Origin: a bacterium | Lineage (GTDB): Bacteria; Desulfobacterota; Deferrisomatia; Deferrisomatales; BM512 | Reading direction: 5' to 3' | Length of the DNA: 32,144 nucleotides | NCBI GenBank assembly: GCA_009724975.1 | Contig: SRXB01000002.1 | Coordinates: 1 to 32,144, forward strand | Shown here: positions 2,239 to 32,144 of the stretch, one piece after another | Layout: each line of letters opens with the position of its first letter | Numbering within the stretch: the stretch's first letter is position 1 | Notes under the pieces: model-generated | The model's database searches: none | What the model was told of the DNA's origin: nothing | The model's input: only the letters and a program-made list of their open reading frames with translations | Translations under genes and position numbers: made by a program

Positions 2239-2241
2239 CGA

Positions 2242-4677: not shown

Positions 4678-4699
4678 AACTTCTTCCTCCCGCTCCACG

Positions 4700-11023: not shown

Positions 11024-11753
11024 TCTCTTTCATCCACAGAATGACCAAGGTTTTGTCGTCAATATGGTGAGGAGTTGGCCACTCCCTCAGTTCTCTCCTG
11101 AGCGAATGCCAGCGCTTTAAAGGAGGCATCGCGCCGAACTCCTCGAGCAGCCAAATTACAAAGTCATCGACCCTATCTGGTATCAAGTCATCAGAGATAC
11201 CGTCTGTTGCCAAAAGAACGATTGCTTCTCCCGTGACGCGAAAGTCCTGCAGGGTCCAATTGCTGACCTGGAGATTTTGCCCCAAAGCTCTTGTATTATT
11301 TGAAAAGTTGTCCCCGCGCTGGCCGTGAATCCATTCCGTGTCCTCGCCACCCCGCTTTATGACCGCCATTCCATCTCCCAACCCGCCAATCAGCAAATTG
11401 CCATCGGGGCGTTTCAGAGCGAACAAACAGGTAGCTTTGCTGGCGCCAGGCGGAAATGGCAATACAAGTCTCTGCCAGGTCGGCTCAATCTGCGTGATCA
11501 GTTCAGTTGGCGTGCCGCCCGAAAGTTTGCTCCACTTTTTGACGGATTGAACAACAGCCTCGCACGCACACTTCGCACCGTGTCTTGCGTGAGGGCATGA
11601 ACCTACTCCGTCACTGACGACGATCAGGTCGCCGAAAGCCCCCTTGGCTCTCATCCAGGCGTCTGCATTGGGCATGTGCCTGGCCCTGTGATAAGGCCCC
11701 GCCTCGGAGGCCCCGAATGCAAGGGTTTCCCCTCTGCTAGAAAACGTCTTCAT
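11004..11753 (-). CDS. PP2C-family Ser/Thr phosphatase (TerY-P triad)
   Basis: 249-aa ORF with LIVVSDGVGSCPH and VLLATDGISDDL metal-binding Asp motifs typical of PP2C. The start overlaps the vWA gene end by 17 nt. Confidence 0.8.
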   Translation of the reverse strand: MKTFSSRGETLAFGASEAGPYHRARHMPNADAWMRAKGAFGDLIVVSDGVGSCPHARHGAKCACEAVVQSVKKWSKLSGGTPTELITQIEPTWQRLVLPFPPGASKATCLFALKRPDGNLLIGGLGDGMAVIKRGGEDTEWIHGQRGDNFSNNTRALGQNLQVSNWTLQDFRVTGEAIVLLATDGISDDLIPDRVDDFVIWLLEEFGAMPPLKRWHSLRRELREWPTPHHIDDKTLVILWMKESAASHE

Positions 11754-12399
11754 CGAAATCGATCGGGTCGCTCGGAATGAAGCTGTCGGGGTTTACGCTG
11801 CGTGAGCGCTCCGTCACGCTCATCGTGACCCACTTGAAAAACTTTTTGATCTGTCGAACATCTTGTGCAGAGAAGACCTTGCCGTTTGGATCCGCCAAAA
11901 AAGCTGAAAGCATTGTCATGTCGGCATCATCGCCGATTCCCAAAGCAAAGCGGCTGGCCTTGGAACCACGCGGAGAGGACAAAAGGTCTTGCAACGGCTG
12001 TTGCCAGTCATCGGTAGGTTGACCGTCAGATACCAGGATCAAAGTCGGCGAGTAGGACCGGCTGGGTATCTGTTGCCGATCCTCGATCAACTGAAGAGCG
12101 GTATTAAGGGCCGCACCTAGAGGTGTAGCCCCGGCTGCAGTCATTCTTTGCCATGAGGTCTGTCCTGCAGGTGTCAGGGCTTGATGGAGTTGCCCCCCAT
12201 TTTTGCCGAAAGTGATGGTGGCCACATGGATTTCTGCCCTGTGGTCATCCTCACTGGCAAATGTCCGCAGCATTTCCTCGATGGAGTCATTGAGCACGTC
12301 AATTTTGCCATTTGTGCTCATACTGCCACTGACGTCAGCAAGAAGGATCACAGGGAGTGGGCGAGCGGTGCCGACGACGAATTCCTTTAGTTTGCTCAT
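11737..12399 (-). CDS. TerY-like von Willebrand factor A (vWA) domain protein (TerY-P triad)
   Basis: MIDAS motif LLADVSGSMS, followed by ATPLGAAL and LILVSDGQPTDD. ATG codons occur at 12405 and 12399; GAGGAA spacing favours 12399. The gene starts 5-11 nt after the RtcR-like stop (12410-12412). Confidence 0.8.
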   Translation of the reverse strand: MSKLKEFVVGTARPLPVILLADVSGSMSTNGKIDVLNDSIEEMLRTFASEDDHRAEIHVATITFGKNGGQLHQALTPAGQTSWQRMTAAGATPLGAALNTALQLIEDRQQIPSRSYSPTLILVSDGQPTDDWQQPLQDLLSSPRGSKASRFALGIGDDADMTMLSAFLADPNGKVFSAQDVRQIKKFFKWVTMSVTERSRSVNPDSFIPSDPIDFDEDVF

Positions 12400-12409
12400 G
12401 TTCATTTCC

Positions 12410-14062
12410 TCAGTTGAGTTGTCTGTCGAGCCAGTTTCTGATTGTTCGCTCAGTCACATCGCAGAGACTTTCTACTGGGACTCCGCGCGACTTCGCGATC
12501 CTCCGGATTTCTCCCGCCAGATATCGCCTGAACTCACCTTCAATCTGGGCGCAATCGATGGCCCCCGCAGACTGCAGCACAAGGTCAAGCGGCTGCCGAT
12601 CCGCAAAACAGCGCGCGACCCGCGGGGCGATCGCTTCCGTTTGTCTCTGTGTCGACGAGGAAAAATCGAGAGCTGATAACGCCTCGTCGATCGCCTGGTC
12701 GGGAGATAATCGGGTTTCCTCATCGCTGCGGGCAGCCAGGAAATGGTAAGCGACTTGATAAAGGGTTCGGAGATTGCCAGGGAGAGGATGCTGCTGCAAA
12801 AATCGCACAATCTTGTTGCTCTGCGCTTTACCGATCGATCTCGATCTGTGCGGGACACCGGAACGCTGGGCCGCGTTCTCGTAGACCTGCTCCCAGAGCC
12901 AAGGGATATCCTCTGGTATGTCCCGGAGAGCTGGGAAGTGGAGAACGAACGTGCTGATCCGATCAAGGAAGTCGCGATCAAGACGGCTTTCCAAAATGTC
13001 CCAAGGGAGATTGGTGGCTGTCAATAAGCGAAAGTTGCTTTCCACAGGCTGGTTGTCACCAAGGGGGTAGTACCGTTTTTCCTCCAACGCCTTTATCAGG
13101 AGTCTCTGGACCTCCTTTGACACGTCACCGACTTCGTCCAGAAAGAGCGTATCGTTGTTGGCTTTAGAGAGAAGGCCTTCCTTTTTGAATTTAGCGTCCG
13201 TGAAGGAGCCCTTCGCATGGCCGAAGAGTTCTGACCGCATGGTTTCGGGCGTATACTGGCCACAGGCCACGGCGGGCCACTCGGCCCCCTTGCCATTCTT
13301 GAACTGACTATGAAGTCTGATCCAGCTTCCCAAGGTGGTTTTCCCGGTGCCGCGTTCGCCCAGGATAAGGATCGGTACGTTCAATTTGGCATAACGGGCA
13401 GCTTTTTCATAAAGTGCGATGAGAGCCGCAGACCGAAAGAGCCGACGGTCCCATAGTATCTGTTGTTCTGAGGTTTCGACCTGTAATGGTCTGGTGGAAA
13501 CGAATTTTTTGTAAAACGTATCGATACCGATTTCTACGTTCCCAATTACCTGCCCATCTGGTCGCTCGCCTTTTCGATAGGATTTTACAAGTCGGAGCGG
13601 CGGAGCGATGAAACCCGTTTCCGCCATCAGTACCCAAATAGTGTGCATCGACGGGGTTCCGGGGCTCACATGGATAATGAGCTCGCGGTTTAGATACTGC
13701 TGGCGAAGCCGCGGAAGCTGATCTTCTAGAAACTCAAAGATGCTTTTGTGGTCGGTCGGATCGTCGGAATGCCAGCAGAGGGTTCGGGCCTTGATCCCAC
13801 TGTCGCGTTTGCGAATTTCACCTATTGTTTCTTCAGCCGTCTGCTTCTCCTCAGTACGTCCTGAAGAATCCTGACGGTAGAGTAAAATCACGTCCTTGAC
13901 GGTACCGCGCAGAGGCGACCCCTCGGAGAAAAGCAGGTTCAATGTGGGCCCCGGTATGGGGACTCCGTCAACGAGACGATAGCTCCTGGATTCGCGTTGC
14001 CTCTCAAACGGGTCATTGTTGAAGGCGGCCCATGATATGAGGACGGCGTCTTTATTTGTCAC
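12410..14062 (-). CDS. RtcR-like sigma54-dependent transcriptional activator (N-terminal CARF-type domain, AAA+ core, C-terminal HTH)
   Basis: GTG start at 14062 with GGAGG 10 nt upstream. Motifs seen: Walker A ILGERGTGKTTL, sigma54-contact loop ELFGHAKGSFTDA (GAFTGA-like), Walker B LFLDEVGD, and RLLTATN. The N-terminal ~190 aa include LIIHVSPGTPSMHTIWVLMAETGF, which resembles the RtcR N-terminal domain from memory. The C-terminal ESLCDVTERTIRNWL is HTH-like. Confidence 0.75.
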   Translation of the reverse strand: MTNKDAVLISWAAFNNDPFERQRESRSYRLVDGVPIPGPTLNLLFSEGSPLRGTVKDVILLYRQDSSGRTEEKQTAEETIGEIRKRDSGIKARTLCWHSDDPTDHKSIFEFLEDQLPRLRQQYLNRELIIHVSPGTPSMHTIWVLMAETGFIAPPLRLVKSYRKGERPDGQVIGNVEIGIDTFYKKFVSTRPLQVETSEQQILWDRRLFRSAALIALYEKAARYAKLNVPILILGERGTGKTTLGSWIRLHSQFKNGKGAEWPAVACGQYTPETMRSELFGHAKGSFTDAKFKKEGLLSKANNDTLFLDEVGDVSKEVQRLLIKALEEKRYYPLGDNQPVESNFRLLTATNLPWDILESRLDRDFLDRISTFVLHFPALRDIPEDIPWLWEQVYENAAQRSGVPHRSRSIGKAQSNKIVRFLQQHPLPGNLRTLYQVAYHFLAARSDEETRLSPDQAIDEALSALDFSSSTQRQTEAIAPRVARCFADRQPLDLVLQSAGAIDCAQIEGEFRRYLAGEIRRIAKSRGVPVESLCDVTERTIRNWLDRQLN

Positions 14063-14124: not shown

Positions 14125-14490
14125 CTATGCTGCCGCATGACCATGAAAATAATCGTCGCTTTTATTGCTTTTCCGCCAGACTTTCCCATACCGGGGTTTC
14201 AGCCCACGGAAATTGTGATTACGATAGGCAGTGAGGACGGTGCCGGACTGGGAGCAAACCACGTGAATGCCCTCGCACCTTTCAAGATTAATCCCCAGGT
14301 CCCTTTGAAATTTAATTTCCTTGATCCCAACTACGTAAATAATTGCCCCCCGAATTTGGATCGCCCGCCCATAAGTAAGAACGTTGTCAATATCGCTACT
14401 GCGAATGTGTCTGTCACTCATCCTCTCCAAAGCATGCTTAGTCAAAATCGCTTCGACGTCGCCCGACCACTCCGCATTGTGTCCTTGCAT
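14125..14490 (-). CDS. DUF4258-like small protein; first gene behind the candidate sigma54 promoter
   Basis: 121-aa ORF with ATG at 14490 preceded by GGAGGTGAACC. TKHALERMSDRHIRSSDIDNVLTYG resembles the DUF4258 H-A-x-E-R-M signature. GC content is visibly lower than in neighbouring genes. Confidence 0.45.
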   Translation of the reverse strand: MQGHNAEWSGDVEAILTKHALERMSDRHIRSSDIDNVLTYGRAIQIRGAIIYVVGIKEIKFQRDLGINLERCEGIHVVCSQSGTVLTAYRNHNFRGLKPRYGKVWRKSNKSDDYFHGHAAA

Positions 14491-14526
14491 GGTTCACCTC
14501 CGTGGATGGATGTTGACCATTAATTT

Positions 14527-14542
14527 TGCCAACAGCATGCCA
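14527..14542 (-). promoter_or_regulatory. Candidate sigma54 (-24/-12) promoter
   Basis: The minus strand reads TGGCATGCTGTTGGCA. GG and GC are spaced exactly as in the consensus TGGCACG-N4-TTGCW. The element ends ~37 nt upstream of the DUF4258-like ATG and lies in the same operon as a sigma54 activator. Confidence 0.5.
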
Positions 14543-14610
14543 AGAGGATCGAAAAAAATTAATTCATAAATATCGACATGTTAGATATGCATGAAGAGAT
14601 CGGTCACGAT

Positions 14611-14619
14611 ATTATATCA
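14611..14619 (-). promoter_or_regulatory. Possible extended -10 sigma70 element (TGATATAAT)
   Basis: The minus strand reads TTGATATAATATCG in the AT-rich 188-nt intergenic region. There is no convincing -35. Confidence 0.25.
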
Positions 14620-14626
14620 AAGTTTT

Positions 14627-14663
14627 CGGAAAAATAATTCCACTATAATGAATTTTATTTCCG
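14627..14663. promoter_or_regulatory. 14-nt imperfect inverted repeat; candidate activator-binding site (UAS)
   Basis: The minus strand reads CGGAAATAAAATTC-N9-GAATTATTTTTCCG, with 12 of 14 positions complementary. It is centred ~100 nt upstream of the candidate -24 element. Confidence 0.3.
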
Positions 14664-14678
14664 CAATGCGTTGCGTTG

Positions 14679-20682: not shown

Positions 20683-22116
20683 TTATGCGACGCCTCTAGG
20701 TTCATCACTTATCCCCGGCACCAGCGGCGTGCCGGGCTCGGGCCTGAACACGGTCTCTTCCACCTCAAATAGGTCGTACTTGAGGATTTCGAAACCAACC
20801 GCTTCACACGTGCAGTCCGACTCCTCAAGGGTGACGACGCGGAGCCTGCCGGTCCCGGATTCCCTATCGACGGCGACGACGGGCACCTCGCCGCAGGACA
20901 GGGCAAGAACCCCCTCCGCCGGCAAGGGGATGGCCGATTGGGTAGCCGTCGGCACCTTGCCAATCCTGAATTCGGGAACTTCAGCGTCATAGACAAAGTT
21001 CAGCGACTCCTCCCAGCGCCATGATGCCAGAATTTCCAAGGCTGCGTAAATCGTGATTGTGCCTCCCTGCAACGAAAGGAGTTCGCCCAGGAGGTCAACC
21101 TCCTGCCGGGTGAACGGCACCGGGTTCTTCTTGCATACCGCGACATGGGCGGCAACGGCCTTTTCGGTTGGTTCGAGGTAGGAGAACCACTCCTCTCTCG
21201 TCAGGTTGGGGTCTATCTTGGATGCTTCGTCAAACGCCCTGCGCTCCTCTTCGGTGGGCAAGTCAGAGCGCCCGAGGACTGCCGATCTTGGGCAGCTGGC
21301 CCTCAATTCGAATAAGGGGAGCCCCTCGCCGATCGTCTGTGACATACCGACGGCGACCCTGGCGCGGGGCTTTCCCTCCTCGACATCATCCAGGTAGGCG
21401 CTCCAGAAAAAGGCCGTGTGCAGCCACAGGCTCTCCCAGTGGAACTTCTTCCGGTCCGGCGTGAACACGAGGTCAGGGACAAGCAGCAGGCTGTACCGCC
21501 AGAGGTAGCTCGCGAACGGGCTGCCGTCAGGCTCGTGGTCCTGAAGGGTCACGACGCGCAACAGGCCCGTGCCCTGGTCGCGGCCGACGGCGACCCCCCG
21601 CACATTGCCACCCTTCAGGTGAACGAACCCTATGTCCGGCAATGAAGGGCCCCAGTGACCGGGGCTCATCGCCGCCTGCCCGGGGGGCTGAACGAGCCCA
21701 GGCAGCTCGGGCTCGACCGGCTCGGCCCAGCGGTTGGCGGTGAGCACGTTAAGGAGCGGGTCCATCACCGAGGAGTAGCTGCGCACCATGGCAACCTCGC
21801 CAAGCAGCTCAAATACCCGCTGGCCGAGTTCCGATTCCTCGGGGGTGAACGGGACAGGGGCTTTTTTGTACCTTTGCTGGAGGGCCTCGGCCTGGGCCTC
21901 GATCATGTCGATGTCTATCGCCATGCCGGCGGCAAGGTGGCCGTGGATATAGCGATGCCCCCAGAGGATGAAAGTGTCCATTCGGGATGGGTCCCGCCCT
22001 TGGCGCAGGTCCTCCTCGCTGGCGACCGCCCACGTCGGGACGCGAAAGGACCGCCCGCCCCATTCGCAGGGGTAAAGCTCCACGAGCCAGTACATCTGAA
22101 CATTGTTGTCATCCAT
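20683..22116 (-). CDS. Hypothetical two-module protein, paralogue of the C-terminal half of the Sel1-repeat protein; possibly SUKH/SMI1-KNR4-like
   Basis: Internal duplication: KKAPVPFTPEESELG...VAVGRDQGTGLLRVVTLQDHE versus KKNPVPFTRQEVDLLG...VAVDRESGTGRLRVVTLEESD. The protein aligns along its whole length with aa ~317-746 of the ORF at 28159-30399. Confidence 0.55.
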   Translation of the reverse strand: MDDNNVQMYWLVELYPCEWGGRSFRVPTWAVASEEDLRQGRDPSRMDTFILWGHRYIHGHLAAGMAIDIDMIEAQAEALQQRYKKAPVPFTPEESELGQRVFELLGEVAMVRSYSSVMDPLLNVLTANRWAEPVEPELPGLVQPPGQAAMSPGHWGPSLPDIGFVHLKGGNVRGVAVGRDQGTGLLRVVTLQDHEPDGSPFASYLWRYSLLLVPDLVFTPDRKKFHWESLWLHTAFFWSAYLDDVEEGKPRARVAVGMSQTIGEGLPLFELRASCPRSAVLGRSDLPTEEERRAFDEASKIDPNLTREEWFSYLEPTEKAVAAHVAVCKKNPVPFTRQEVDLLGELLSLQGGTITIYAALEILASWRWEESLNFVYDAEVPEFRIGKVPTATQSAIPLPAEGVLALSCGEVPVVAVDRESGTGRLRVVTLEESDCTCEAVGFEILKYDLFEVEETVFRPEPGTPLVPGISDEPRGVA

Positions 22117-22337
22117 GCGTGCGCCCCCTCAGGCAATGCTTAAGATGCAGGGCCCACCATAATGCGGCAGCCATGCGCCCCCAGCTTATCTTACCCGGCG
22201 GAATGTCAGGATAAGTCACAACGGCTTGCCGTCCATGATACCCACCCAGGAAAACATCCGGCCACACCATTTCGATAATGGGTGGCCGGGGCGTGCCTGA
22301 AGCGCACAGTTCGCTTTGGGGAATTTACGGGAACGGG

Positions 22338-22853
22338 CTATCTGGCCGGTTCAAAATCTCTGCGCAACTGTCGGTCAAATCCTTCAATGGCCTGCACGAT
22401 GAAATCAAACCAGCCATCGACATCAGGGTCCTGATCATAGCTGCCGCGCCGGGAAGAATAGGTGAGTTTGAGGGTGGCCCTTTCCTCAAAACCACTCGGG
22501 CGGAGCCTTTTCGTCACCTCGAATTCCACATCGTTGTCCCCTTCAAGGAACACATTCCTAGCGACACCGGGAAAGCCCTGCTGATCGGTTGGTAGTCGCT
22601 TGAACTCCTCCATGTACTCGACGTTGATCCGGAGGTAAACATGTGGTCTGTTCAGCGAAAGACGCCCCATGCCGGAAGAGACACCATCACATATGTTTAT
22701 CAAGGTCAGGCTGCGCAATCGGTTCAGCTTTTCGAGCCAGCTATCTTTCAGATTCTTGTCCACGCACCGCCCGTTCCAGAGTCGTTCATGAGGCCTGCAC
22801 TCCCTGCGGTTTGGCGCCATCTGCGGCGGAATGAGATTTACTCCCTGTGCCAT
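22338..22853 (-). CDS. Hypothetical 171-aa protein
   Basis: ATG at 22853 with GAGAGG upstream. No recognisable motifs. Confidence 0.45.
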   Translation of the reverse strand: MAQGVNLIPPQMAPNRRECRPHERLWNGRCVDKNLKDSWLEKLNRLRSLTLINICDGVSSGMGRLSLNRPHVYLRINVEYMEEFKRLPTDQQGFPGVARNVFLEGDNDVEFEVTKRLRPSGFEERATLKLTYSSRRGSYDQDPDVDGWFDFIVQAIEGFDRQLRRDFEPAR

Positions 22854-22934
22854 AAAACCTCTCAGATGTGATGATGGTCTTCACCTGCAATCAAAATGTG
22901 GATATTGCTGCAAGGTCGACGGGGGTTGTGCCTG

Positions 22935-24560
22935 TTATTCCGGTTTGGGATCGCGCCAGCAATTGTCGAGCATCCGGTCTGCGAGCCCGGTCAGTTCCTC
23001 GCGGAACTCAAGCTCACCCAGATAATCGGCATCCGTCTTCATGTCGGTTATGGCGAAGAGGTCCCGATCGCTGTCGGTCTTAACCTTCTGCCAATACTGG
23101 CGGTCCATGTTTCTATGGAGGCCGTTCAGTGCCCCGCAGAACGTGCCGGCCATGGCGGCGACCGTGTCCGAATCGACGCTCTCGTTGACGGCGTTGTAGA
23201 TGACCCGGTCGAAGTGGCCAGGGGAGAAGAGGAAGCAGTAGAGGGCGAACGGCAAGCTTTCCAGCACATAGGCACCACTCCAGAACTCTTCCTGGACCTG
23301 GGCGGGCAGTTGCTTTTCATCCAGGAACCGGGGGATGTCGTCGCGTATCCTCGAAGCCAGAGTCGATGGTTGGCCATCTTTGCGGGTCACATACTGACCG
23401 CCGCCCTCGATGCCGGCGATGGCGTCCGCCAGATCCCGGCAAAAAAGGGTCTTCTGCCCAAGATCCGACAGTTGATTGACGTTGATCCGCAGCAACATGG
23501 CCACGGCATAGGCCATGACAATACTGCTGGCAATCGCCATCGGGTCGTTATGGGTGACCATGGCCTGCATGCCGGCGGCCAGCTTGAGCTCGTCGAAGTC
23601 GTTGCGGAAGAAGATCCCCACCGGGGAGGCGCGCATCGCCGCGCCGTTCCCCGAGGAGGCGACGCCGGCCTCGTACCAAGGGAGCTTCTTGTCCTTGTAA
23701 TTGCCGACGAACTGCCTGGTCGCCTGACCGATGCCACGAATGTGCTCGCGGGTGAACCGCTTTGCCAAGTCATCCGGGACCAGCCTGCCATTGGTCAGCA
23801 GTGACTCGGCGAGCCACCATGTCATCTGGGTGTCATCGGTTATCGTGCCGACCGGCCCGGATTGCCACCCATGCCACGGCGCGTACCAGGTGGCCGGCGC
23901 GCACGTGCCGGGGAGCCGCCCCTCCATCTGCCTCCCTATGGCGTCGCCGATGGCCCCGCACAGGATCGCGCCCCGGACCTTGTCTTCGAGCCAACGCTTG
24001 CCTGACGGGCCCAGGTCTTCGTCCAGGTTGCCTTTCAGTGGTTTGTCGACCCCGACGTGCATGAAGTCGCAGCACAAGGCCCCCTTGTGGAAGATCTCCG
24101 TGTAGATCCCGTGGAGGGCCTCATCCCCCGAGCTCTTCTTCCTGATGGGCTTTGCCACCTGACTGCCGCCTTTCCGCCCCTTCAGCCAATTGCAGTAGAT
24201 GTCATTGGTGGCAAAGAAAAGCGTATCATTCGTTTCGTTATCGACGACGGAAATCCCCTCATTGAACTTGACGCCTGTGACGGAGCAGATGCCGGGCTTG
24301 TATGTTTGCGGTTCATTATCTCCGCACCACGGGATGCGGGTGTAATAACCCTCGAAGATCCCTGATGAGTACACGGGCCCTTTGATGGCTGGCATCTTGT
24401 CGGGAACCTTGTCTCTCCACCCTTCCCAATTGTTGCAGTAGGTCCAGAAGGGCACGGTGATACTGACCCCGCGCAATTCGCACCTGCCGCCTTGAGTCCG
24501 GTCCCCCCCAGTGCGGTTCCACGCACACGTTCCGCAATTATCTGGCCCGCCGTTTGGCAT
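22935..24560 (-). CDS. ADP-ribosylglycohydrolase (ARH/DraG family) with ~200-aa Cys-rich N-terminal extension
   Basis: Motifs seen: GAILCGAIGDAIGRQMEG, ITDDTQMTWW, SSGNGAAMRASPVG and SVDSDTVAAMAGTFCGALNG. The N-terminus carries NCGTC and further Cys residues. Confidence 0.8.
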   Translation of the reverse strand: MPNGGPDNCGTCAWNRTGGDRTQGGRCELRGVSITVPFWTYCNNWEGWRDKVPDKMPAIKGPVYSSGIFEGYYTRIPWCGDNEPQTYKPGICSVTGVKFNEGISVVDNETNDTLFFATNDIYCNWLKGRKGGSQVAKPIRKKSSGDEALHGIYTEIFHKGALCCDFMHVGVDKPLKGNLDEDLGPSGKRWLEDKVRGAILCGAIGDAIGRQMEGRLPGTCAPATWYAPWHGWQSGPVGTITDDTQMTWWLAESLLTNGRLVPDDLAKRFTREHIRGIGQATRQFVGNYKDKKLPWYEAGVASSGNGAAMRASPVGIFFRNDFDELKLAAGMQAMVTHNDPMAIASSIVMAYAVAMLLRINVNQLSDLGQKTLFCRDLADAIAGIEGGGQYVTRKDGQPSTLASRIRDDIPRFLDEKQLPAQVQEEFWSGAYVLESLPFALYCFLFSPGHFDRVIYNAVNESVDSDTVAAMAGTFCGALNGLHRNMDRQYWQKVKTDSDRDLFAITDMKTDADYLGELEFREELTGLADRMLDNCWRDPKPE

Positions 24561-24565
24561 TGTGT

Positions 24566-24946
24566 TTATTTCCCCCTTATCCTTGAATGACCTTCAAGGG
24601 GGTTCAGTTGCCACGCCTCCCCAAAAGTCTTCCTCTTCACGAGGCATTGCCAGAAATACCAGCCCCCCAGGAACAGGGCCACACCCCAGGGGGAGTAGCG
24701 GCGCATCTGCCGAACATGCTCGTACTCGTGCTGATAGACGTAATCGTAGGACGGCGTTGTCGTGCCGGCGATGTCGGCGCGGATCAAAATGACATTCAAA
24801 AAGGCCATGCCATACCCACCCATCGGCAGCCGCCTGACCCGCACCACTGCGACAGGCAGCCAGGTCCACAGCCAAATCGAGAGCATCAGCCCGAAGAACA
24901 CTGCTATCGGGAGATCGCCAGTGAACAGGATCGACAACAACCGCAT
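24566..24946 (-). CDS. Small integral-membrane protein with an HExxH zincin motif
   Basis: 126 aa with hydrophobic segments at the N-terminus and near the C-terminus. Contains YQHEYEHVRQ. The stop lies 5 nt before the ARH start. Confidence 0.5.
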   Translation of the reverse strand: MRLLSILFTGDLPIAVFFGLMLSIWLWTWLPVAVVRVRRLPMGGYGMAFLNVILIRADIAGTTTPSYDYVYQHEYEHVRQMRRYSPWGVALFLGGWYFWQCLVKRKTFGEAWQLNPLEGHSRIRGK

Positions 24947-24972
24947 ATGAGCTTTCCAACAGCCTGCTAGTG

Positions 24973-26019
24973 CTACGATCTCAATCCCGCTAATTGAGCC
25001 CGCTCAACAATGGCCTCGTATCGATTAAGCACTTCATCAAGTTGTGATTGAAAGGTATCTAAGTTGGGCGCATGGGCAGCCAGACCATTCACCTCTTTCA
25101 GCAGTTTTGGGAAAACGATCCGCCTTGATCTATCCCCGGTAAAAAACGCACAATTTTCGGCAAAAGGGAGTGCTTGAAAATATGCTGCCACAGCCGGCTC
25201 TTCTTGGGGACTCTCTTGGGAGGACTTCAGCAGACCGGCCTGGTGAAGGTGCTCTGCCACGGTCATAACATCACTCATGAAGACACCAAGGACCAGATTA
25301 TAACCCATCCTCTGTAATGTAAGTGCTTGATCCCCTTCCGGCCCTTCGATCTCTGGGAGTTTTAAGGGGATATATCCTCTCTCCAGACTCCACATATACA
25401 ACTCCATCGGGTTGGTCGGGCAATCCTGGCACCGCCCCAGCCGATAATTGATCACATGCGGGGCAAACTCCAAAACCCCCTGAACTGACAGAGAGCCATC
25501 ATTTGGAAGCGCACTGAAGAAATTGCTCAGTCGGCGAAAAGAGCCTGCCGTAATCCCGATGGGTATCACAAATGCCATCAGGAAACCGTCGGGGAAGTAG
25601 CTCCCCACGCCGACTCCTCCCATTTTCTCGTACGGGATGAACTGCAGATTGTATTTTTCTACAAGCTCTTGCTGTAAGACATTGTCCATGGCCTTCGTGG
25701 GTGACATACGGAATTGGCACATTGGGCCGCCGAACATCTTCATCGGGCCCATGTAATAAATAAGCTCTTGGGTGCGGTATGTCTCACGCACAAAGAAACG
25801 TTCATCGGACACTTTTAGTTCAAGAGCAAACTCACTGGTGCGATACTCTACCTGGAGTTCATCAAAGGTTCTCTTGAACGTTTCCGGAATTAACGTTCCC
25901 ATGAATAGTCTAGAGGGCAAATCCTCGATACATCTTGGCGGGCTAGACAGTGGCTTAAAATTCAAGGCTGGCCGCAAAACATGTGGGACTGCAATAGTTG
26001 GAAACGATTGGTTTGCCAT
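24973..26019 (-). CDS. Hypothetical ~348-aa protein
   Basis: The ORF-track start at 26025 is a TTG. The ATG at 26019 has AGAAAGG upstream. GC content is visibly lower than in the flanking genes. Confidence 0.5.
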   Translation of the reverse strand: MANQSFPTIAVPHVLRPALNFKPLSSPPRCIEDLPSRLFMGTLIPETFKRTFDELQVEYRTSEFALELKVSDERFFVRETYRTQELIYYMGPMKMFGGPMCQFRMSPTKAMDNVLQQELVEKYNLQFIPYEKMGGVGVGSYFPDGFLMAFVIPIGITAGSFRRLSNFFSALPNDGSLSVQGVLEFAPHVINYRLGRCQDCPTNPMELYMWSLERGYIPLKLPEIEGPEGDQALTLQRMGYNLVLGVFMSDVMTVAEHLHQAGLLKSSQESPQEEPAVAAYFQALPFAENCAFFTGDRSRRIVFPKLLKEVNGLAAHAPNLDTFQSQLDEVLNRYEAIVERAQLAGLRS

Positions 26020-26076
26020 GAACAAAAACCTTTCTTAGAAAAAGGAGAGCCCGGCTATCAATGGCTATTGTAGAGT

Positions 26077-26916
26077 TTAAATGAGCCCCCAGACTTTGAG
26101 AACATGGGGCATGATCGGTTCGCCCGTCTCGCGGGCTGTAATCGCATTGAGGCGAGGGGCAATGATTTTTGCGTAATCCTTGAGCGGCCACTTCTTCTTG
26201 ACTTCGACAGGTTCGCCGGCACCAACGGGGAAGCTGCGTTCGATGTCGCGCACCACCATATCCCTCGCCCCCAGGACTTGATTGGCCAATCCGGCAGCAA
26301 CCGCGCCATAAAGCGATGCGTCCCGTTCGCTATCGAGCTCGCCCAGCCAGTCCAGGTAGAACTCGATCGACCCGGCGACAAGCATACCACTGTGACAGTG
26401 AATGGCCTCCTCGACCTCGGCAACAGACAGGCTCTCCCGGTGGGCCTTGAGCAGCTCGGTGACTCGGCGGTCACCGCACACGACGAGCCCGCCGAAAATC
26501 GCCCCCGGGTTCCCGGCGATCTCGCTGGTTGCCCATTCAAGGAGGAGATTTACCCCTGACATCGGATCTTCCTCCCCCGGTTGAAGGACCGCAAAATCGA
26601 GGGCCGCTGATGAGACAATCTGCCGGTCATAATCGCACAGCAAAAAAGGCAGGAGGCCCAGAGGTGAGATCTCGCCTTGCTCGACGCGCTCACGACAAGC
26701 CTCGTAATTGAACAACCGCTGTTCCGAAGGGATCTTCTCCCGATAAATCGCGTAAAGCTCGGTGATGATGTCAACCAGCCGATCGTCGTTCGACGCGCCA
26801 TACATGCACGCGACACCGTGGACGAGTTGATCAAGCGTCTTGTTGTCCAGCGATCCCCACCGCTCAGGCTGTCCCAGCAACGTTGTGAATGTCTCTGCCG
26901 ACGGCTTGCCTTTCAT
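26077..26916 (-). CDS. Hypothetical 279-aa helical protein
   Basis: ATG at 26916 with a perfect AGGAGGA SD, 19 nt after the metK stop. Confidence 0.55.
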   Translation of the reverse strand: MKGKPSAETFTTLLGQPERWGSLDNKTLDQLVHGVACMYGASNDDRLVDIITELYAIYREKIPSEQRLFNYEACRERVEQGEISPLGLLPFLLCDYDRQIVSSAALDFAVLQPGEEDPMSGVNLLLEWATSEIAGNPGAIFGGLVVCGDRRVTELLKAHRESLSVAEVEEAIHCHSGMLVAGSIEFYLDWLGELDSERDASLYGAVAAGLANQVLGARDMVVRDIERSFPVGAGEPVEVKKKWPLKDYAKIIAPRLNAITARETGEPIMPHVLKVWGLI

Positions 26917-26935: not shown

Positions 26936-28117
26936 TTAAGCGTTCACTTCCCGCAGAAGCCCACTGACCCGATCGGTCTTTTCCCAGGTAAACCCGGGGC
27001 CCGTCCTGCCGAAATGGCCATAGGCCGAGGTCGGCGCGTAGATCGGCCGGCGCAGATCGAGGGTGCGAATAATGCCGGCCGGCGTCAAGTCGAACACCTT
27101 GCGCACGGCTTTTTCAAGGATATCCTCGGCAACCGTCGCGGTGCCGTGGGCGTCCACCAGGACCGAGATCGGCTCAGCCATGCCGATGGCGTAGGACAGC
27201 TGCAGGGTGCAGCGTTTGGCCAAGCCGGCCGCCACCACGTTCTTGGCGACATAGCGGGCCATGTAAGCGGCCGATCGGTCAACCTTGGTGGGGTCCTTCC
27301 CGGAGAACGCCCCGCCGCCGTGCGGGCATGACCCGCCATAGGTATCGACAATGATTTTGCGGCCGGTCAGCCCGGTATCACCCAGCGGGCCGCCGATCTC
27401 GAACCGCCCGGTCGGGTTGACGTGGATCTGTAGCGCTCTTGACCGCAAGCTCACCGGGATCTCCGGGAGGACGATCTGCTCGATGACCTCACGGCGCAAC
27501 GTGTCGTTGTCGATCGCCGGGGCATGCTGCGTGGAAAGGACCACCTGCTCGACGGCTGCCGGGCGGCCATCCCGGTAGCGCACGGTCACCTGGGACTTGG
27601 CATCCGGGCGCAGCCAGGGCAGTTCGCCACTGTGCCGCAACTGCGCCTGCCGGCGCGCCAGCGCATGAGCCAGCGAGATCGGCAACGGCATCAACTCGGG
27701 GGTTTCGTCGCAGGCATAGCCGAACATCATCCCCTGGTCGCCGGCACCGATCGCCCCTTCCTTCTGATCGACGCCCTGGGCGATATGCTCCGATTGCACG
27801 CTGAGAGAGAGCCGTACCTCGCAGCGATCGGGATCGAAACCGGTGTCGCCACCGGCATAGCCGATCTCGCGCACCGCCTGGCGGGCGATAGCCGGGATTT
27901 CAGCCTGCAACTGCTCCAGCAGGTTAGGGATGGTTGCCGAGCCGAATTCGCCGGCGACGATGAGCAGGTCCTTGGCGATCAGCGTCTCGCAGGCAACGCG
28001 CGCCAACGGATCCTGCGCAAGAACATGATCGAGGACCGCATCGGAGATACGGTCAGCAACTTTGTCCGGGTGTCCCTCGGACACCGATTCAGATGTAAAC
28101 AGATATTCTCTGGACAT
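26936..28117 (-). CDS. metK: S-adenosylmethionine synthetase
   Basis: 393 aa. Motifs seen: [36 protein letters not shown] and [28 protein letters not shown] upstream. Confidence 0.95.
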
Positions 28118-28158
28118 GGGTGTCTCCTTTGATCATGACCTTGAGCTATTCGCCTGGG

Positions 28159-30399
28159 CTAGGCATTGCCCGCGCAAGCCGTATCTTCCAGCCCCGCGAT
28201 AAACAGACAGTCCTCAATCTCGAAGAGGCTGAGTGCCGGGATCTGGATCGCCTGATTTCGGTGCTGAACCTGGCTGGAGTCCTCGATGCTGACGACCAGG
28301 AGCCGCCCGGAGTTCGGGTTGCGATCGACGGCGAGGGAGGGGATGGGGCCGGAGCTGACGTTGATCAGCCCCTTGGCTGGAAACTGCAGTCCCCCTCCCT
28401 GTGATACACGTTGCACTTTACCTTTAAGCTGGAGTTCCGGAAAGAACTCTTTGAAGTTCTCGTTGGCAAGTCTCCCCCAGCGATAGGCGGCCAGGATCAG
28501 CCGGGCGTCGTTGATCGTGAAGTCGTCATCCAATGAGAGAATCCCGTGGAGCAGATCCATTTCCTCGGGCGTGAACGGCAGGGGGTTTGCCTGCCAATGC
28601 CGGACATGCTCAAGGACGGCGTCGTCGGTTGACTCCAAGGCTTCGGGGAGAGGGTGCTCCGTTGCCGTGACATCCGCCCCGTGCCCCTCGCTGAGCGACT
28701 GCGATTGCCACACGGCAACCATGGAGCGAGCAGTACCCTGCCGTTCAACGAGGCTTGCCGTCCAGAAAAAGTGGGTTTTCAGCCACAACAGTTCCCACTT
28801 GAACGTGCGACGGTCGGGGCGAAATGCCGCCGCCGGGATATGCAGTAGGCTGTAGCGCCACAGGAAGCTGTCGACCGGGTGCCCCTCGGGCTCGTAATCT
28901 TCCAGCGTCACGACCTGCACAAGGTCCGTCCCCGGTACCGGGCCGACAGTGATGACGCGGACATCCCCGTCTTTCAGGCGGGCAAAACCGATGTCCGGGG
29001 TCAAACCCCTGGAGGCGTTTTCTCTTGGTCTGCCATGAGCGATGGCGACCGATGGCTCCGGGCAGGCAGGAACGCCCCACCGCGTGGCCGTGACAACATT
29101 CAAGGTGATCCGGTATTTCTTGTAGTCCGTGGTACCAGACAACACCCCGTCCAGCAGTTGGAAGGTTTCCTTTGCCAGAACCATTTCGGCAGGCGAAAAG
29201 GGCACGGGATTGCTCTCGTACTTCTGCCTGACCTCGTTGGCCTCGCGCTCGAGGCGGCCGGCGTCAATCCCCTCGCCGGAGGTCTGCAACTGCCGGATGT
29301 AGTCACGGCCCCAGGAAACTAAGGTATCCATGCGCGTGGCATCCTCCCCCTGTTCCCTTTCTTCCTTGGTGATTACTGCCCAGATCGCCACCGGAAATTT
29401 CTGCCCGTCCCACTCGCAGGGGTAGTGCTTGACCACCCAGAACAGGTCCAGCCCCCCTTCGTCGACGTCAAGCTCAGCGGGTGACAAGAGCTGCGTGTCC
29501 CCGGCGAACGGGAGCAAGGCCTCCCCGTCGCGATTGGCAACAGCCAGGAGGGCTGCGATGTCGCGATAACCGACTGCGGCGTTCTTCGGGTGGAGGGTCA
29601 CGAAGTCGTGGATGTCCTTGGCCATCTGCTGCAAACAGGGGCGCCCGAGGAACTGCATCACGACGATGGTCCTGTGGCGAAGCGGCACGGCGTGATCGAG
29701 CGGGATTGGTCCCAGTTCAGCCTCGGCCGGCTCGAACAGGGTAAACGCGTCGAAACGCTCGCGAGTCTCGACCGCCGGCCCGTACTCCTGGACAGCGGCG
29801 CGGTCCAGCCAGTAGAAGGCTTCGATCTGATCGGCATCGACCCCGGATCCCTGGCCGAGGAGCGTCGCGACCAGGTACTGGGCTTCAGCCACCCCCTGCT
29901 CGGCAGCCGCCAGGAAGTAAGGGTAGGCCCTGCCGTCGTCTTGCACCGTCTCAGCTCCCTGGTGATAGATTTGCCCCAATCTGAGCTGGGCATCGGGATC
30001 CCCCTGCCGAGCCGCAAGGTCCAGCCAGTGAATGGCTTGGCGAATATTTTTCTTCACCCCCCGCCCCTGAAGGTAATAGAGCCCGAGGCTGTATTGCGCC
30101 GGGGCGTATCCTTGCTTGGCCGAGCGCCGGTACCACTGAACCGACAACCGGGGCTGCTGCGGGACGGCTATCCCTTTTGACAGGCAATACCCCAGAAAAG
30201 CCTGGGCCCGTGGGTGCCCTTGCTCGGCCGCCGCCGAACAATAGCGATAGGCTTTTTCAAGGTCTTCAGTCACGCCGTCAGCCTGCAGATAACGAATCCC
30301 AGCCCAGTACTGACATTCAGCGTCCCCCCGATCTGCGCGGTCGAGCAGCTCGTTGACAGGCAGGGGGCTTTCGATTTTTTTATTTATTCGCGTTTGCAT
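28159..30399 (-). CDS. Sel1-repeat (TPR-like) protein fused to a two-module domain paralogous to ORF 20683-22116
   Basis: At least five Sel1 repeats in aa ~25-205, for example AQYSLGLYYLQGRGVKKNIRQAIHWLDLAARQGDPDAQ. The C-terminal ~430 aa (nt 28162-29451) align with the 477-aa protein. GGGAGGA SD upstream. Confidence 0.75.
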   Translation of the reverse strand: MQTRINKKIESPLPVNELLDRADRGDAECQYWAGIRYLQADGVTEDLEKAYRYCSAAAEQGHPRAQAFLGYCLSKGIAVPQQPRLSVQWYRRSAKQGYAPAQYSLGLYYLQGRGVKKNIRQAIHWLDLAARQGDPDAQLRLGQIYHQGAETVQDDGRAYPYFLAAAEQGVAEAQYLVATLLGQGSGVDADQIEAFYWLDRAAVQEYGPAVETRERFDAFTLFEPAEAELGPIPLDHAVPLRHRTIVVMQFLGRPCLQQMAKDIHDFVTLHPKNAAVGYRDIAALLAVANRDGEALLPFAGDTQLLSPAELDVDEGGLDLFWVVKHYPCEWDGQKFPVAIWAVITKEEREQGEDATRMDTLVSWGRDYIRQLQTSGEGIDAGRLEREANEVRQKYESNPVPFSPAEMVLAKETFQLLDGVLSGTTDYKKYRITLNVVTATRWGVPACPEPSVAIAHGRPRENASRGLTPDIGFARLKDGDVRVITVGPVPGTDLVQVVTLEDYEPEGHPVDSFLWRYSLLHIPAAAFRPDRRTFKWELLWLKTHFFWTASLVERQGTARSMVAVWQSQSLSEGHGADVTATEHPLPEALESTDDAVLEHVRHWQANPLPFTPEEMDLLHGILSLDDDFTINDARLILAAYRWGRLANENFKEFFPELQLKGKVQRVSQGGGLQFPAKGLINVSSGPIPSLAVDRNPNSGRLLVVSIEDSSQVQHRNQAIQIPALSLFEIEDCLFIAGLEDTACAGNA

Positions 30400-30448
30400 G
30401 GCATCCTCCCTGGCGCCGTAGCACCACCGTTGTGATTGTCATTTAAGC

Positions 30449-30475
30449 CCGCATCGCCGATGGCCGGCGACGCGG
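30449..30475 (-). other. GC-rich hairpin between the 382-aa gene and the Sel1 gene
   Basis: CCGCATCGCCG-ATGGC-CGGCGACGCGG forms an 11-bp stem with one mismatch. No T-tract follows it on the minus strand, so it is not a classical intrinsic terminator. Confidence 0.25.
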
Positions 30476-30510
30476 GGTGCATTTCCCTTCAATGAGCCTC
30501 ACTGGACCGT

Positions 30511-31659
30511 TCAGACTTGGAACCAGGGGTCGGCCAGGATCTGGTCGCCCAGGTGCGGTCTCTCGTATTCACCGCAAGTCACGCAGTACCAGGCTTCCGG
30601 GTTGAACTCGGTGCGGAAGAATTCCCGCATCGCAATCCGGAAGGCGTCCACGAACTGGCGACGGTTGACGATGGCTTCGATGAACACCCCTTCCTGCTCG
30701 TCGCAGTAGGCGTTCAGGATGCGCAGGAGAATTCGGTCCGGATCGTCGGTCGCGTACGCCTCGAACTTCTTCTCGGGGCCTTCTTCTTCGATCTGGAACC
30801 TGACCGGCAGGTCGCCACGCCCGATCGACTTGAGCCATTCGATGAGCAGTTCGACCGGCGGGAAGGAGTTGGAGAGAACCGCGTCGAGAGTCTGCGACCC
30901 GACCCCCAGGTGGAGGTAGATCCAGTCCCAGCGGTTTTCCATTTCCAGGCGCACGGTCGCCGGTTCGTCCTCGACAGTCGGGTTGATCTGGAACAACCGG
31001 TCGAGCCCGAAGTGCGGCCGTTCCAAGCCGTCCCGGGTGAAGTGCCAATTGCCCAGAGACGACGTCCCTTCGAAGACCAGGCAAGGAGTGCAGTGGTCCC
31101 ATCCCCAGGAGCGGGCGTCCATGCGCTCGTAGTACCATTCGAGGTACTCGCCGTAGCTCTTGCAGGGGAACGGCTGCAGCTTCGTCGGGACAGCGATGCC
31201 CTCCGGGTCATCGTCGACTTCTTCGACGTAGCTGAAGTTCTCGGCCAGCATCTCGAAGAACGCCCGGCTGCGGTCAAACTCGACGTTACCGCCCATATCG
31301 GCATGGGCCGCGACCTTGATATTGCCGCCGAAGGTCGCGTCCAGGATCATTTGCGCCTGCCGCCGGCGCGCTTCCGCCCCATCGCACAGCGGGTCATGGG
31401 AGAGGGTCTTGCCCAGCATCAGCAGGGCTGCACGGATGCGCTCGTCCTTGCAGGTGGACAGCGGGAGGAGGATGCCGTGCTTGATGAAGCAACCGTTGCC
31501 GTAGCTCTCGTTGACGACGAAGATGCCTTTCTTTCCCTCGGCATGGGGGCCGCGCGCGTCAGCCCCCATGCCGCCACGACGGAAGATGTAGATGAAGGGT
31601 TGAAGCTCTTTCAGGTCACCGGCGATATCGCCGTACTGCCGTTGGTTGCCGTATTTCAT
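30511..31659 (-). CDS. Hypothetical 382-aa protein
   Basis: ATG at 31659 with GAAAGGA upstream. No recognisable catalytic motif. CVTCGEY occurs near the C-terminus. Confidence 0.55.
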   Translation of the reverse strand: MKYGNQRQYGDIAGDLKELQPFIYIFRRGGMGADARGPHAEGKKGIFVVNESYGNGCFIKHGILLPLSTCKDERIRAALLMLGKTLSHDPLCDGAEARRRQAQMILDATFGGNIKVAAHADMGGNVEFDRSRAFFEMLAENFSYVEEVDDDPEGIAVPTKLQPFPCKSYGEYLEWYYERMDARSWGWDHCTPCLVFEGTSSLGNWHFTRDGLERPHFGLDRLFQINPTVEDEPATVRLEMENRWDWIYLHLGVGSQTLDAVLSNSFPPVELLIEWLKSIGRGDLPVRFQIEEEGPEKKFEAYATDDPDRILLRILNAYCDEQEGVFIEAIVNRRQFVDAFRIAMREFFRTEFNPEAWYCVTCGEYERPHLGDQILADPWFQV

Positions 31660-31875
31660 AGCCCTTGTCCTTTCTCAATTGACGTGTAAGTGGTGTGTGA
31701 CGAGTCTTCGCAATGAGACCGATGTTTTTGCCGCCCTCAGGTGAAATCATTCAGTTGTCAGAGAGCGTACCGGGGGCGATTTTGGAGACAAAGCTTCCCC
31801 GGGGCCTCCGAACGCAGAACGACATCCGCTTCGGGGGTTGAATCAAATTCACGTCTGTTTTGAGAGAGGAGCGGT

Positions 31876-31971
31876 CTACGGCGGAGGTTCCGGAAGAACC
31901 CCTGTCATGGCTCCGAGGGCGGGTTGGCCGCTTGCGGCCGTTTGGCGGGATGTGGCGGCGAGTTTTTTCAT
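31876..31971 (-). CDS. Possible 31-codon ORF immediately after the riboswitch terminator
   Basis: GGAGG lies 6 nt upstream of the ATG at 31971, which is 14 nt after the terminator U-tract. The peptide is MKKLAATSRQTAASGQPALGAMTGVLPEPPP. It could be a real leader or small protein, or the remnant of a displaced gene. Confidence 0.25.
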   Translation of the reverse strand: MKKLAATSRQTAASGQPALGAMTGVLPEPPP

Positions 31972-31984
31972 GGCTGACCTCCGG

Positions 31985-32017
31985 AACAGAAAAACCCCTT
32001 CCGTATCGTGGAAGGGG
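31985..32017 (-). terminator. Intrinsic terminator forming the SAM-I riboswitch expression platform
   Basis: The minus strand reads CCCCTTCC-ACGATAC-GGAAGGGG followed by TTTTT, giving an 8-bp GC-rich stem directly downstream of the aptamer. Confidence 0.8.
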
Positions 32018-32037
32018 TCACCGGTGTGGTCGGCCTC

Positions 32038-32144
32038 TTCCTTATCTGCCGGGATCGTCGATCCCGCTGGAGTTAGCACCTTGCCTCCGTAGGCAGGTTG
32101 CTGCGACGTCAAAGGGCCAGTCCCTCGGTCGCTCTCGATAAGAA
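32038..32144 (-). promoter_or_regulatory. SAM-I (S-box) riboswitch aptamer
   Basis: The minus strand reads TTCTTATCGAGAGCGACCGAGGGACTGGCCCTTTGACGTCGCAGCAACC...GGTGCTAACTCCAGCGGGATCGACGATCCCGGCAGATAAGGAA. The P1 pairing CTTATC/GATAAG, GAGGGACTGGCCC (32114-32126), GCAACC, GGTGCTAACTCC (32069-32080) and a P4 hairpin (32050-32066) all match the S-box consensus. The element starts at the window edge. Confidence 0.9.

Follow-up and report, generated by a model that had tools for sequence, protein, structure and literature searches.

Riboswitches are usually understood as feedback controls on the synthesis or import of their ligand. The DNA analyzed here, 32,144 nucleotides (nt) of contig SRXB01000002.1 from a bacterium of the Deferrisomatales (assembly GCA_009724975.1; hereafter the window), raises the question of what an S-adenosylmethionine (SAM) riboswitch controls when the gene behind it has no visible connection to SAM. 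A riboswitch of the SAM-I or S-box class lies at the end of the window. All sizeable open reading frames (ORFs) of the window are on the minus strand, and between the riboswitch and metK, which encodes methionine adenosyltransferase, lie a 31-codon ORF, a gene for an uncharacterized protein of 382 amino acids (aa) and a gene for a Sel1-repeat protein. Comparison with a second locus suggests that the riboswitch is probably the control element of a portable module built around the 382-aa gene, which heads an array of accessory genes with metK as cargo.

A SAM-I riboswitch with a classical expression platform

The following elements were recognized from the aptamer up to the first large gene. The comparisons refer to a related locus, L003, that is described in the next section.

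32039..32144, minus strand: SAM-I (S-box) aptamer with helices P1-P4, by the Rfam RF00162 covariance model
32010..32041, minus strand: predicted antiterminator hairpin, GGAAG.GG pairing with CC.CUUCC, by nascent-transcript folds
31985..32019, minus strand: intrinsic terminator, a GC-rich 10-bp stem followed by a U-run, by terminator scan (ΔG −19.1)
31876..31971, minus strand: putative 31-codon leader ORF with a GGAGG ribosome-binding site, ending in Pro-Pro-stop, by comparison with L003 (3932-4021)
31784..31809, minus strand: hairpin block GGAG(G/A)CCCCGGGG(A/G)AGCTTTGTCTCC in the long leader, conserved with L003
30511..31659, minus strand: gene for the 382-aa protein of an uncharacterized family, the conserved partner of the riboswitch, with a homologue in L003 behind the same leader

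A sequence-only reading of the window had placed an S-box aptamer and terminator at 31985-32144, and the covariance model and terminator scan bear this out. The aptamer scored 94.6 bits with RF00162 (gathering score 44.4, E = 9e-22) and covered the full model from position 1 to 108. In an alignment of six aptamers, standard pairs occupied 91.9% of the pair cells, against 36-48% when the partners were slid. Double-sided changes occurred at five pairs of this alignment, indicating that the P1-P4 junction is maintained by pairing. The window and L003 have different distal P3 segments, each forming a 4-bp helix when folded. An exact 31-mer of the aptamer core, used to search for the origin of the aptamer lineage, had no match in the JGI metagenomes.

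The source contig, L001 (SRR8268563_7003 in Logan), reaches just 91 nt beyond the window. These 91 nt include a promoter-like arrangement of a TTGACA −35 box, a 17-nt spacer and a TACATA −10-like hexamer, the last of which ends ~10 nt before P1. On the other side of the aptamer, folding of nascent transcripts that ended before the 3′ arm of the terminator predicted an antiterminator hairpin, identical in the window and L003, whose 5′ arm shares nucleotides with the 3′ strand of P1. Plain minimum-free-energy folding of the full leader always showed the terminator instead. The terminator stem (32019..31993) is followed by UUUUUCUGUU and is the only strong terminator-like site on the minus strand in this region; it is kept in L003 at positions 3883-3910. 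The layout of P1, antiterminator and terminator is that of the classical S-box OFF design, from which we infer SAM-dependent switching.

The riboswitch recurs with the 382-aa gene

A second SAM-I aptamer (93.4 bits) was found in L003 (contig ERR1857085_21018), upstream of a gene for a homologue of the 382-aa protein (P0002, 78% identical). A BLASTN comparison of L001 and L003 gave a single homologous block, L001 52-1725 corresponding to L003 3714-5414, with 76% nucleotide identity. The block runs from the −35 hexamer to exactly the stop codon of the 382-aa gene. Alignment of the leaders showed that the −35 box, aptamer, terminator, GGAGG ribosome-binding site with the small ORF, hairpin block and gene are all homologous. 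Identity between L001 and L003 varies along the block as follows.

Aptamer: 88%, the highest in the block
Antiterminator and terminator region: 81%
Promoter: 67%
Small ORF: 64%
Remaining spacer: 57%

Outside this block the two loci have little in common. No homologue of any other window protein is encoded on L003, and metK, the Sel1 gene and a hairpin that follows the 382-aa gene in the window (30448-30477) are absent there. The genes downstream of the L003 module encode a 285-aa uncharacterized protein, a 252-aa protein resembling ADP-ribosylglycohydrolase (ARH) and a 337-aa uncharacterized protein, the first of them abutting the stop codon of the 382-aa homologue. Because the block recurs in L003 without metK and with different genes downstream, we assign the riboswitch to the 382-aa gene rather than to metK. 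Together with the promoter, the leader and this gene it thus probably constitutes a discrete portable module of ~1.7 kb that heads two otherwise unrelated arrays. No SAM-I aptamer was found at the other loci of the 382-aa family that were examined (L004-L008, L089-L092).

Divergent from the module, L003 carries genes for a Porphyromonas-type peptidyl-arginine/agmatine deiminase and a PD-(D/E)XK nuclease (1377-3490, minus strand). Together with the ARH or ARH-like genes of the window, L003 and L006, the deiminase hints at a theme of arginine modification and ADP-ribosylation around the 382-aa family.

The 382-aa protein family

The 382-aa protein matched no family in Pfam, NCBIfam, PHROG or PADLOC. 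It is rare: a word-indexed search of 5.8 billion proteins yielded 8, then 13 clusters. An AlphaFold 2 model based on 8 sequences had a mean confidence (pLDDT) of 74 and a predicted template modeling score (pTM) of 0.55, and it consists of repeated β-β-β-α units. Foldseek comparison of this model with PDB and BFVD gave no match at E < 1e-3; the weak matches above this threshold were to Whirly/PUR-like and CdiI-like folds and to uncharacterized viral proteins. The invariant residues of the family are mostly hydrophobic or structural, a pattern that points to a role in binding rather than catalysis.

An exhaustive profile search revealed a superfamily of 525 representatives at E ≤ 1e-3. Many of these representatives are small proteins consisting of the C-terminal domain by itself, a unit of ~150 aa (residues ~225-379, encoded by window positions 30511-31000 on the minus strand). 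In single cases this domain is fused to cpYpsA, to Cys_rich_CPCC and HIRAN, to WG repeats, to LRR or to Sel1 repeats. A profile of the stand-alone domain found nothing in Pfam or PDB, and we regard it as a candidate for a new domain family in conflict systems.

The genes surrounding the homologues point to mobile elements and conflict systems. In L004 and L006 the family member directly follows RtcB, inside arrays of the type RtcB-Thg1-AAA_33-HD-RlaP-cpYpsA-ARH, in which RlaP is described as an RNA-ligase-associated nucleotidyltransferase (PMC12776372). The gene adjoins integrases in L090 and L091 and an MmeI-type restriction enzyme in L008. Genes for TrwB, KorA, KleE and Fic are nearby in L090, those for TrwC, SLT and peptidase S26 in L089, and those for Bro-N and TraU in L007; DUF932 also occurs among the neighbors of the family. 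The window shares no genes with the other 382-family loci except for a weak ARH match. The 382-aa protein was absent from annotated plasmids, phages and IMG/VR viral contigs.

A long leader between terminator and gene

The distance from the end of the aptamer to the start codon of the 382-aa gene is 379 nt, more than twice the maximum in canonical loci (50-176 nt to metK in the controls described below). The leader between terminator and gene accounts for ~330 nt of this distance and contains two conserved features. The leader ORF has kept its start, ribosome-binding site, stop position, Pro-Pro-stop ending and, apart from a 6-nt in-frame indel, its reading frame between the window and L003, with only ~41% of the residues conserved; its coding status is uncertain. 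Pro-Pro-stop is a ribosome-stalling motif, and the ORF could provide a second regulatory layer. A conserved 14-bp palindrome, GGCCGCNNGCGGCC, lies inside it (31939..31926 in the window). The other feature, the hairpin block at 31784..31809, forms an island of conservation in the surrounding spacer.

It is conceivable that the riboswitch controls the short leader only, either the 31-codon ORF or a terminated RNA acting in trans, and that transcription of the 382-aa gene and its followers starts from a promoter in the spacer. The unusual length of the spacer, the conserved small ORF with its strong ribosome-binding site, and the sequence TTGACA (L003) or CTGACA (window) in the conserved block fit such an arrangement. 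A σ70 scan, however, passed no promoter between the terminator and the 382-aa gene in either the window or L003, and the putative −35 box lacks an acceptable −10. Furthermore, aptamer, terminator and gene have been inherited as one block that is bounded by the upstream promoter and the stop codon. We therefore consider leader-only control unlikely.

Distance to metK and the type of MetK

The only SAM-related gene downstream of the riboswitch is the one noted in the sequence-only reading, and its position behind the 31-codon ORF, the 382-aa gene and the Sel1 gene was confirmed.

26936..28117, minus strand: accessory methionine adenosyltransferase (MetK), by TIGR01034, Pfam and motifs

For comparison, 80 metK loci of GTDB species representatives and 80 metagenomic ones were drawn from the matches listed and scanned with a SAM-I covariance model built from the six aptamers. 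SAM-I was present in 39 of the 160 loci, all Firmicutes-like, and in 38 of these the aptamer ended 50-176 nt before metK; the sole exception was a weak match of 41 bits. Where SAM-I accompanies metK, a position directly in front of the gene is thus the common one. Here metK starts 3,921 nt behind the aptamer, a clearly non-canonical placement, compared with at most ~200 nt to a methionine or SAM gene in a canonical S-box arrangement. The closest MetKs from genomes, among the matches listed, are betaproteobacterial and are encoded at loci without SAM-I.

Two of these betaproteobacterial loci contain an S-adenosylhomocysteine (SAH) riboswitch ~1.3-1.5 kb downstream of metK (L014 7456-7540 and L015 7611-7680), in a position that is presumably upstream of ahcY. 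The closest genome relatives of the window MetK thus use another class of SAM-cycle riboswitch.

The window MetK scored 545 bits with TIGR01034 (cutoff 309), contains the three MetK Pfam domains and retains the GHPDK, GAGDQG and GGGAFSGKD motifs. By the equivalog model this is probably an active SAM synthetase. Its identities are not those of an ordinary housekeeping orthologue: the best match was 66% identical in 185,579 species-representative genomes and 64% in JGI metagenomes, among the matches listed. In the search of 5.8 billion proteins the nearest cluster (89%) came from a 2.4-kb contig, followed by clusters at 69-75%. Annotated plasmids and viral contigs yielded just distant MetKs of at most 57-59% identity.

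In nine of the 20 nearest clusters a full MetK is followed by a C-terminal extension, for a total of 539-616 aa. The clade to which they belong (P0016-P0034, including the protein encoded at L173 10001-11746) is 65-75% identical to the window MetK, and its extensions are of at least three unrelated kinds, namely DUF3293, a helical domain of ~190 aa and a third type. We considered a Rosetta-stone link between these fusions and the window genes and rejected it, as the extensions are not homologous to the 279-aa neighbor of MetK or to any other window protein. One relative, P0023 (71% identity, GCA_942493085.1), is encoded next to AcaB, SSB, topoisomerase III, peptidase S49, HigB and a Gabija-like OLD/UvrD pair, which by gene content is DNA of a conjugative element or defense island, resembling an integrative and conjugative element (ICE). 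There is no SAM-I at P0023 or at the MetK-clade loci L173 and L175. In the window, too, all neighbors of metK are accessory genes; no transfer genes, integrase or attachment site were seen. Judged by its relatives and neighbors, the window MetK looks like accessory cargo of the mobile-element type, neither the ancestral partner of the riboswitch nor clearly a housekeeping enzyme.

These data bear on the proposal, made in the sequence-only reading, that an ancestral riboswitch-metK unit was split by insertion of the 382-aa and Sel1 genes, which thereby came under riboswitch control. The common placement of SAM-I directly before metK and the presence of metK as the sole SAM-related gene in the riboswitch-led unit agree with this scenario, and the absence of the hairpin at 30448-30477 and of Sel1 from L003 indicates some rearrangement after the 382-aa gene. 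However, L003 has the complete block from promoter to 382-aa gene without metK downstream, and in the window as in L003 riboswitch, leader and 382-aa gene form one uninterrupted stretch. Insertion would require that L003 secondarily lost metK and had every downstream gene replaced. The clade relatives L173 and L175 and the closest betaproteobacterial MetKs also lack a SAM-I riboswitch. The flanks of the Sel1-metK segment showed none of the insertion signatures that were sought, namely direct repeats, tRNA or a clear compositional break. The recurrence of the block in L003 contradicts the proposal, and we consider it quite unlikely.

Downstream genes and the reach of the transcript

The elements between the 382-aa gene and the presumed end of the transcript, with metK between the second and third, are:

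30448..30477, minus strand: GC-rich 12-bp hairpin between the 382-aa and Sel1 genes (ΔG −25.6, z = −4.4)
28159..30399, minus strand: gene for a 746-aa protein with N-terminal Sel1 repeats (E = 9e-40) and a C-terminal module
22338..26916, minus strand: genes for proteins of 279 aa, 350 aa and 126 aa, a 541-aa ADP-ribosylglycohydrolase and a 171-aa protein, tightly spaced and co-directional
22251..22289, minus strand: terminator-like hairpin followed by UGUUUU (ΔG −28.6, z = −3.8), in the 221-nt gap after the 171-aa gene

Counted from the end of the 382-aa gene, successive gaps measure 111, 41, 19, 51, 26, 5 and 81 nt until the 171-aa gene is reached, and the next one is 221 nt. The 41-nt gap between Sel1 and metK without a terminator and the short gaps that follow had been described in the sequence-only reading and were reproduced, as was a hairpin at 30449-30475. 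The latter proved to have a 12-bp stem (30477..30448) within the 111-nt gap; it has no U-tract and was not flagged by the terminator scan. None of the gaps from the 382-aa to the 171-aa gene contained promoter-like sites or U-tract terminators. The tight spacing and the lack of recognizable promoters and U-tract terminators suggest read-through from the 382-aa gene to Sel1, MetK and up to five more genes, so that the five genes at 22338..26916 are possible members of the riboswitch-led unit. The hairpin at 22251..22289, which the simple terminator scan missed because of a bulge, is the likely 3′ limit of this unit.

The C-terminal module of the Sel1 protein (~420 aa, residues 312-733) shares 38% identity with the full length of a 477-aa protein encoded at 20683-22116 (minus strand). 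The module contains an internal repeat and gave no family match in any library. The ARH gene was identified with E = 5e-60.

The far downstream part of the window encodes a regulator of the RtcR type with CARF, σ54 AAA+ and helix-turn-helix (HTH) domains (12410-14062, minus strand; PADLOC RtcR_PspF1, E = 2.7e-149), preceded by a DUF4258 gene (14125-14490, minus strand). Ahead of these two genes lies an AT-rich gap of 188 nt (14491-14678) with a perfect extended −10 (TGATATAAT). A σ54-like sequence, TGGCAT-N5-TGGCA at 14542..14527, is plausibly placed; a σ54 promoter scan gave just weak matches, overall fewer than expected by chance. RtcB, Thg1 and RlaP are not encoded in the window. Further along are a triad of VWA (TerY-like) protein, PP2C phosphatase and Ser/Thr kinase (9614-12405, minus strand), a 1176-aa superfamily 1 (SF1) helicase resembling MkoA of Mokosh (6246-9776, minus strand; E = 3e-85) and a PDC-M26A-like AAA_5 protein (2242-4698, minus strand); from its gene content this last stretch looks like a defense island. 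The matches with PADLOC-DB were confined to the far downstream part of the window (PLD, RtcR-like, MkoA-like and PDC-M26A), and the 382-aa, Sel1, MetK, 279-aa, 350-aa and ARH proteins matched no defense model in that database.

The hairpin at 22251-22289 and the promoter-like gap at ~14.6 kb indicate that the array very probably comprises several transcription units. The least probable explanation is that a single SAM-guarded regulon, derepressed by falling SAM, for example through a phage SAM lyase, extends over the entire array as far as the PLD nuclease or further. In its favor, all genes point the same way and mostly follow one another closely, conflict-type domains are frequent among their products (ARH, PLD, the RtcR-like regulator, the VWA-PP2C-kinase triad, the MkoA-like helicase) and SAM depletion by the T3 SAM lyase is an established tactic against restriction and BREX (PMC11580459; bioRxiv 10.1101/2023.02.27.530186), but the hairpin with its U-run at 22251-22289 and the gap at ~14.5-14.6 kb, with its extended −10 and σ54-like site before a dedicated RtcR-type regulator, interrupt the array, the riboswitch-proximal genes fit no known defense model, the contexts of the 382-aa family resemble mobile-element cargo at least as much as host defense, and literature searches yielded no precedent. 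The sequence-only reading had proposed control of non-methionine accessory genes by the SAM riboswitch, possibly as far as the PLD nuclease. The first part of that proposal is strengthened by the module in L003, whereas an extension of the regulon to the PLD nuclease is unlikely in view of the hairpin at 22.26 kb and the gap at ~14.6 kb. A conserved core-genome gene order, which had been named as an outcome that would speak against the proposal, is not seen; nothing in the window resembles core genome.

Proposed mechanism

On balance we favor the explanation in which the riboswitch is the control element of a portable 382-aa module at the head of an accessory array, with metK as cargo. At high SAM, P1 would form and preclude the antiterminator, so that transcription would end at ~31,990. 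At low SAM, read-through would allow expression of the 382-aa gene and, further downstream, of Sel1, MetK and up to five more genes including ARH, ending near 22,260. For MetK, the position behind a SAM riboswitch would amount to ordinary feedback, with SAM being made when SAM is low.

Several observations weigh against this explanation. The leader is exceptionally long, and the conserved small ORF and hairpin block in it could represent an unrecognized promoter, an operator or extra regulatory layers. The hairpin at 30448-30477 could stop or process transcripts ahead of Sel1 and metK. The two known instances of the module are fairly close in sequence and may trace back to a single evolutionary event. 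The mobile context of the MetK clade is derived from one relative, P0023, and the 382-aa protein may have a hidden link to SAM metabolism.

What purpose such control might serve can be considered in light of the conflict-type contexts. It is possible, although doubtful, that a fall in SAM acts as a danger or state signal for a mobile element or defense island and opens a conflict module that includes the 382-aa protein as a binding or immunity-like component, the Sel1 scaffold and a backup MetK restoring SAM. Starvation might cause the fall, or a SAM lyase of phage or plasmid origin with an additional inhibitory effect on the host MetK, and the divergent backup MetK would then restore SAM for SAM-dependent restriction, BREX or methylation. 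A classical riboswitch would in that case serve a counter-measure guarded by a metabolite. Phage SAM lyases degrade SAM and inhibit host MetK, which defeats type I restriction and BREX (PMC11580459; bioRxiv 10.1101/2023.02.27.530186). The locus is compatible with a response to such SAM depletion, to which a divergent backup MetK would be suited. It is also compatible with conjugative-element cargo that adjusts methylation or restriction dependent on SAM; the efficiency of conjugation reportedly changes, via these processes, with the SAM levels of donor and recipient (PMC12456054).

Comparison with known systems

The module shares its aptamer family, the transcriptional OFF design and a σ70 promoter directly upstream with the S-box leaders of metK and methionine genes in Firmicutes. 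In contrast to these leaders, the first gene here encodes an uncharacterized protein associated with mobile elements and conflict instead of a methionine or SAM gene, both this gene (379 nt) and metK (3,921 nt) are farther away than the canonical 50-176 nt, and the module is portable, occurring in two unrelated arrays.

A second point of reference is formed by the RtcB RNA-repair arrays (RtcB, Thg1-like, RlaP, HD, cpYpsA and kinase, with RtcR), which in L004 and L006 harbor a homologue of the 382-aa protein directly after RtcB. The window encodes an RtcR-type CARF-AAA+-HTH regulator and ARH, and one member of the 382-aa family is fused to cpYpsA. The window lacks RtcB, Thg1 and RlaP, however, whereas the RtcB arrays lack a riboswitch. 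Accessory and anti-restriction cargo of conjugative elements provides a third comparison: both the 382-aa family and a related MetK fusion are found near conjugation or ICE genes, but no transfer genes, integrase or attachment site accompany them in the window, and annotated plasmids yielded no MetK of this clade, all plasmid MetKs being less than 60% identical. In the literature we found no report of a SAM riboswitch controlling defense or mobile-element genes, and nothing on DUF3293, on accessory MetK fusions or on accessory MetKs in conjugative elements. The aptamer class itself is known; what is new is a canonical SAM-I switch with a non-canonical, portable and conflict-associated target.

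The locus thus combines a textbook SAM-I switch with a co-inherited gene of a rare family without visible SAM link. Provided that it works, the switch would give a concrete example, easy to test, of how a core-metabolite sensor can be recruited for accessory or conflict genes. It would also offer a handle on two uncharacterized groups, the 382-aa family, whose C-terminal domain is widespread, and a MetK clade that has repeatedly been fused to accessory domains. Because of phage SAM lyases and SAM-dependent restriction, SAM is a contested metabolite, which makes this locus a reasonable place to look for SAM-based signaling in the conflict between phages or plasmids and their hosts.

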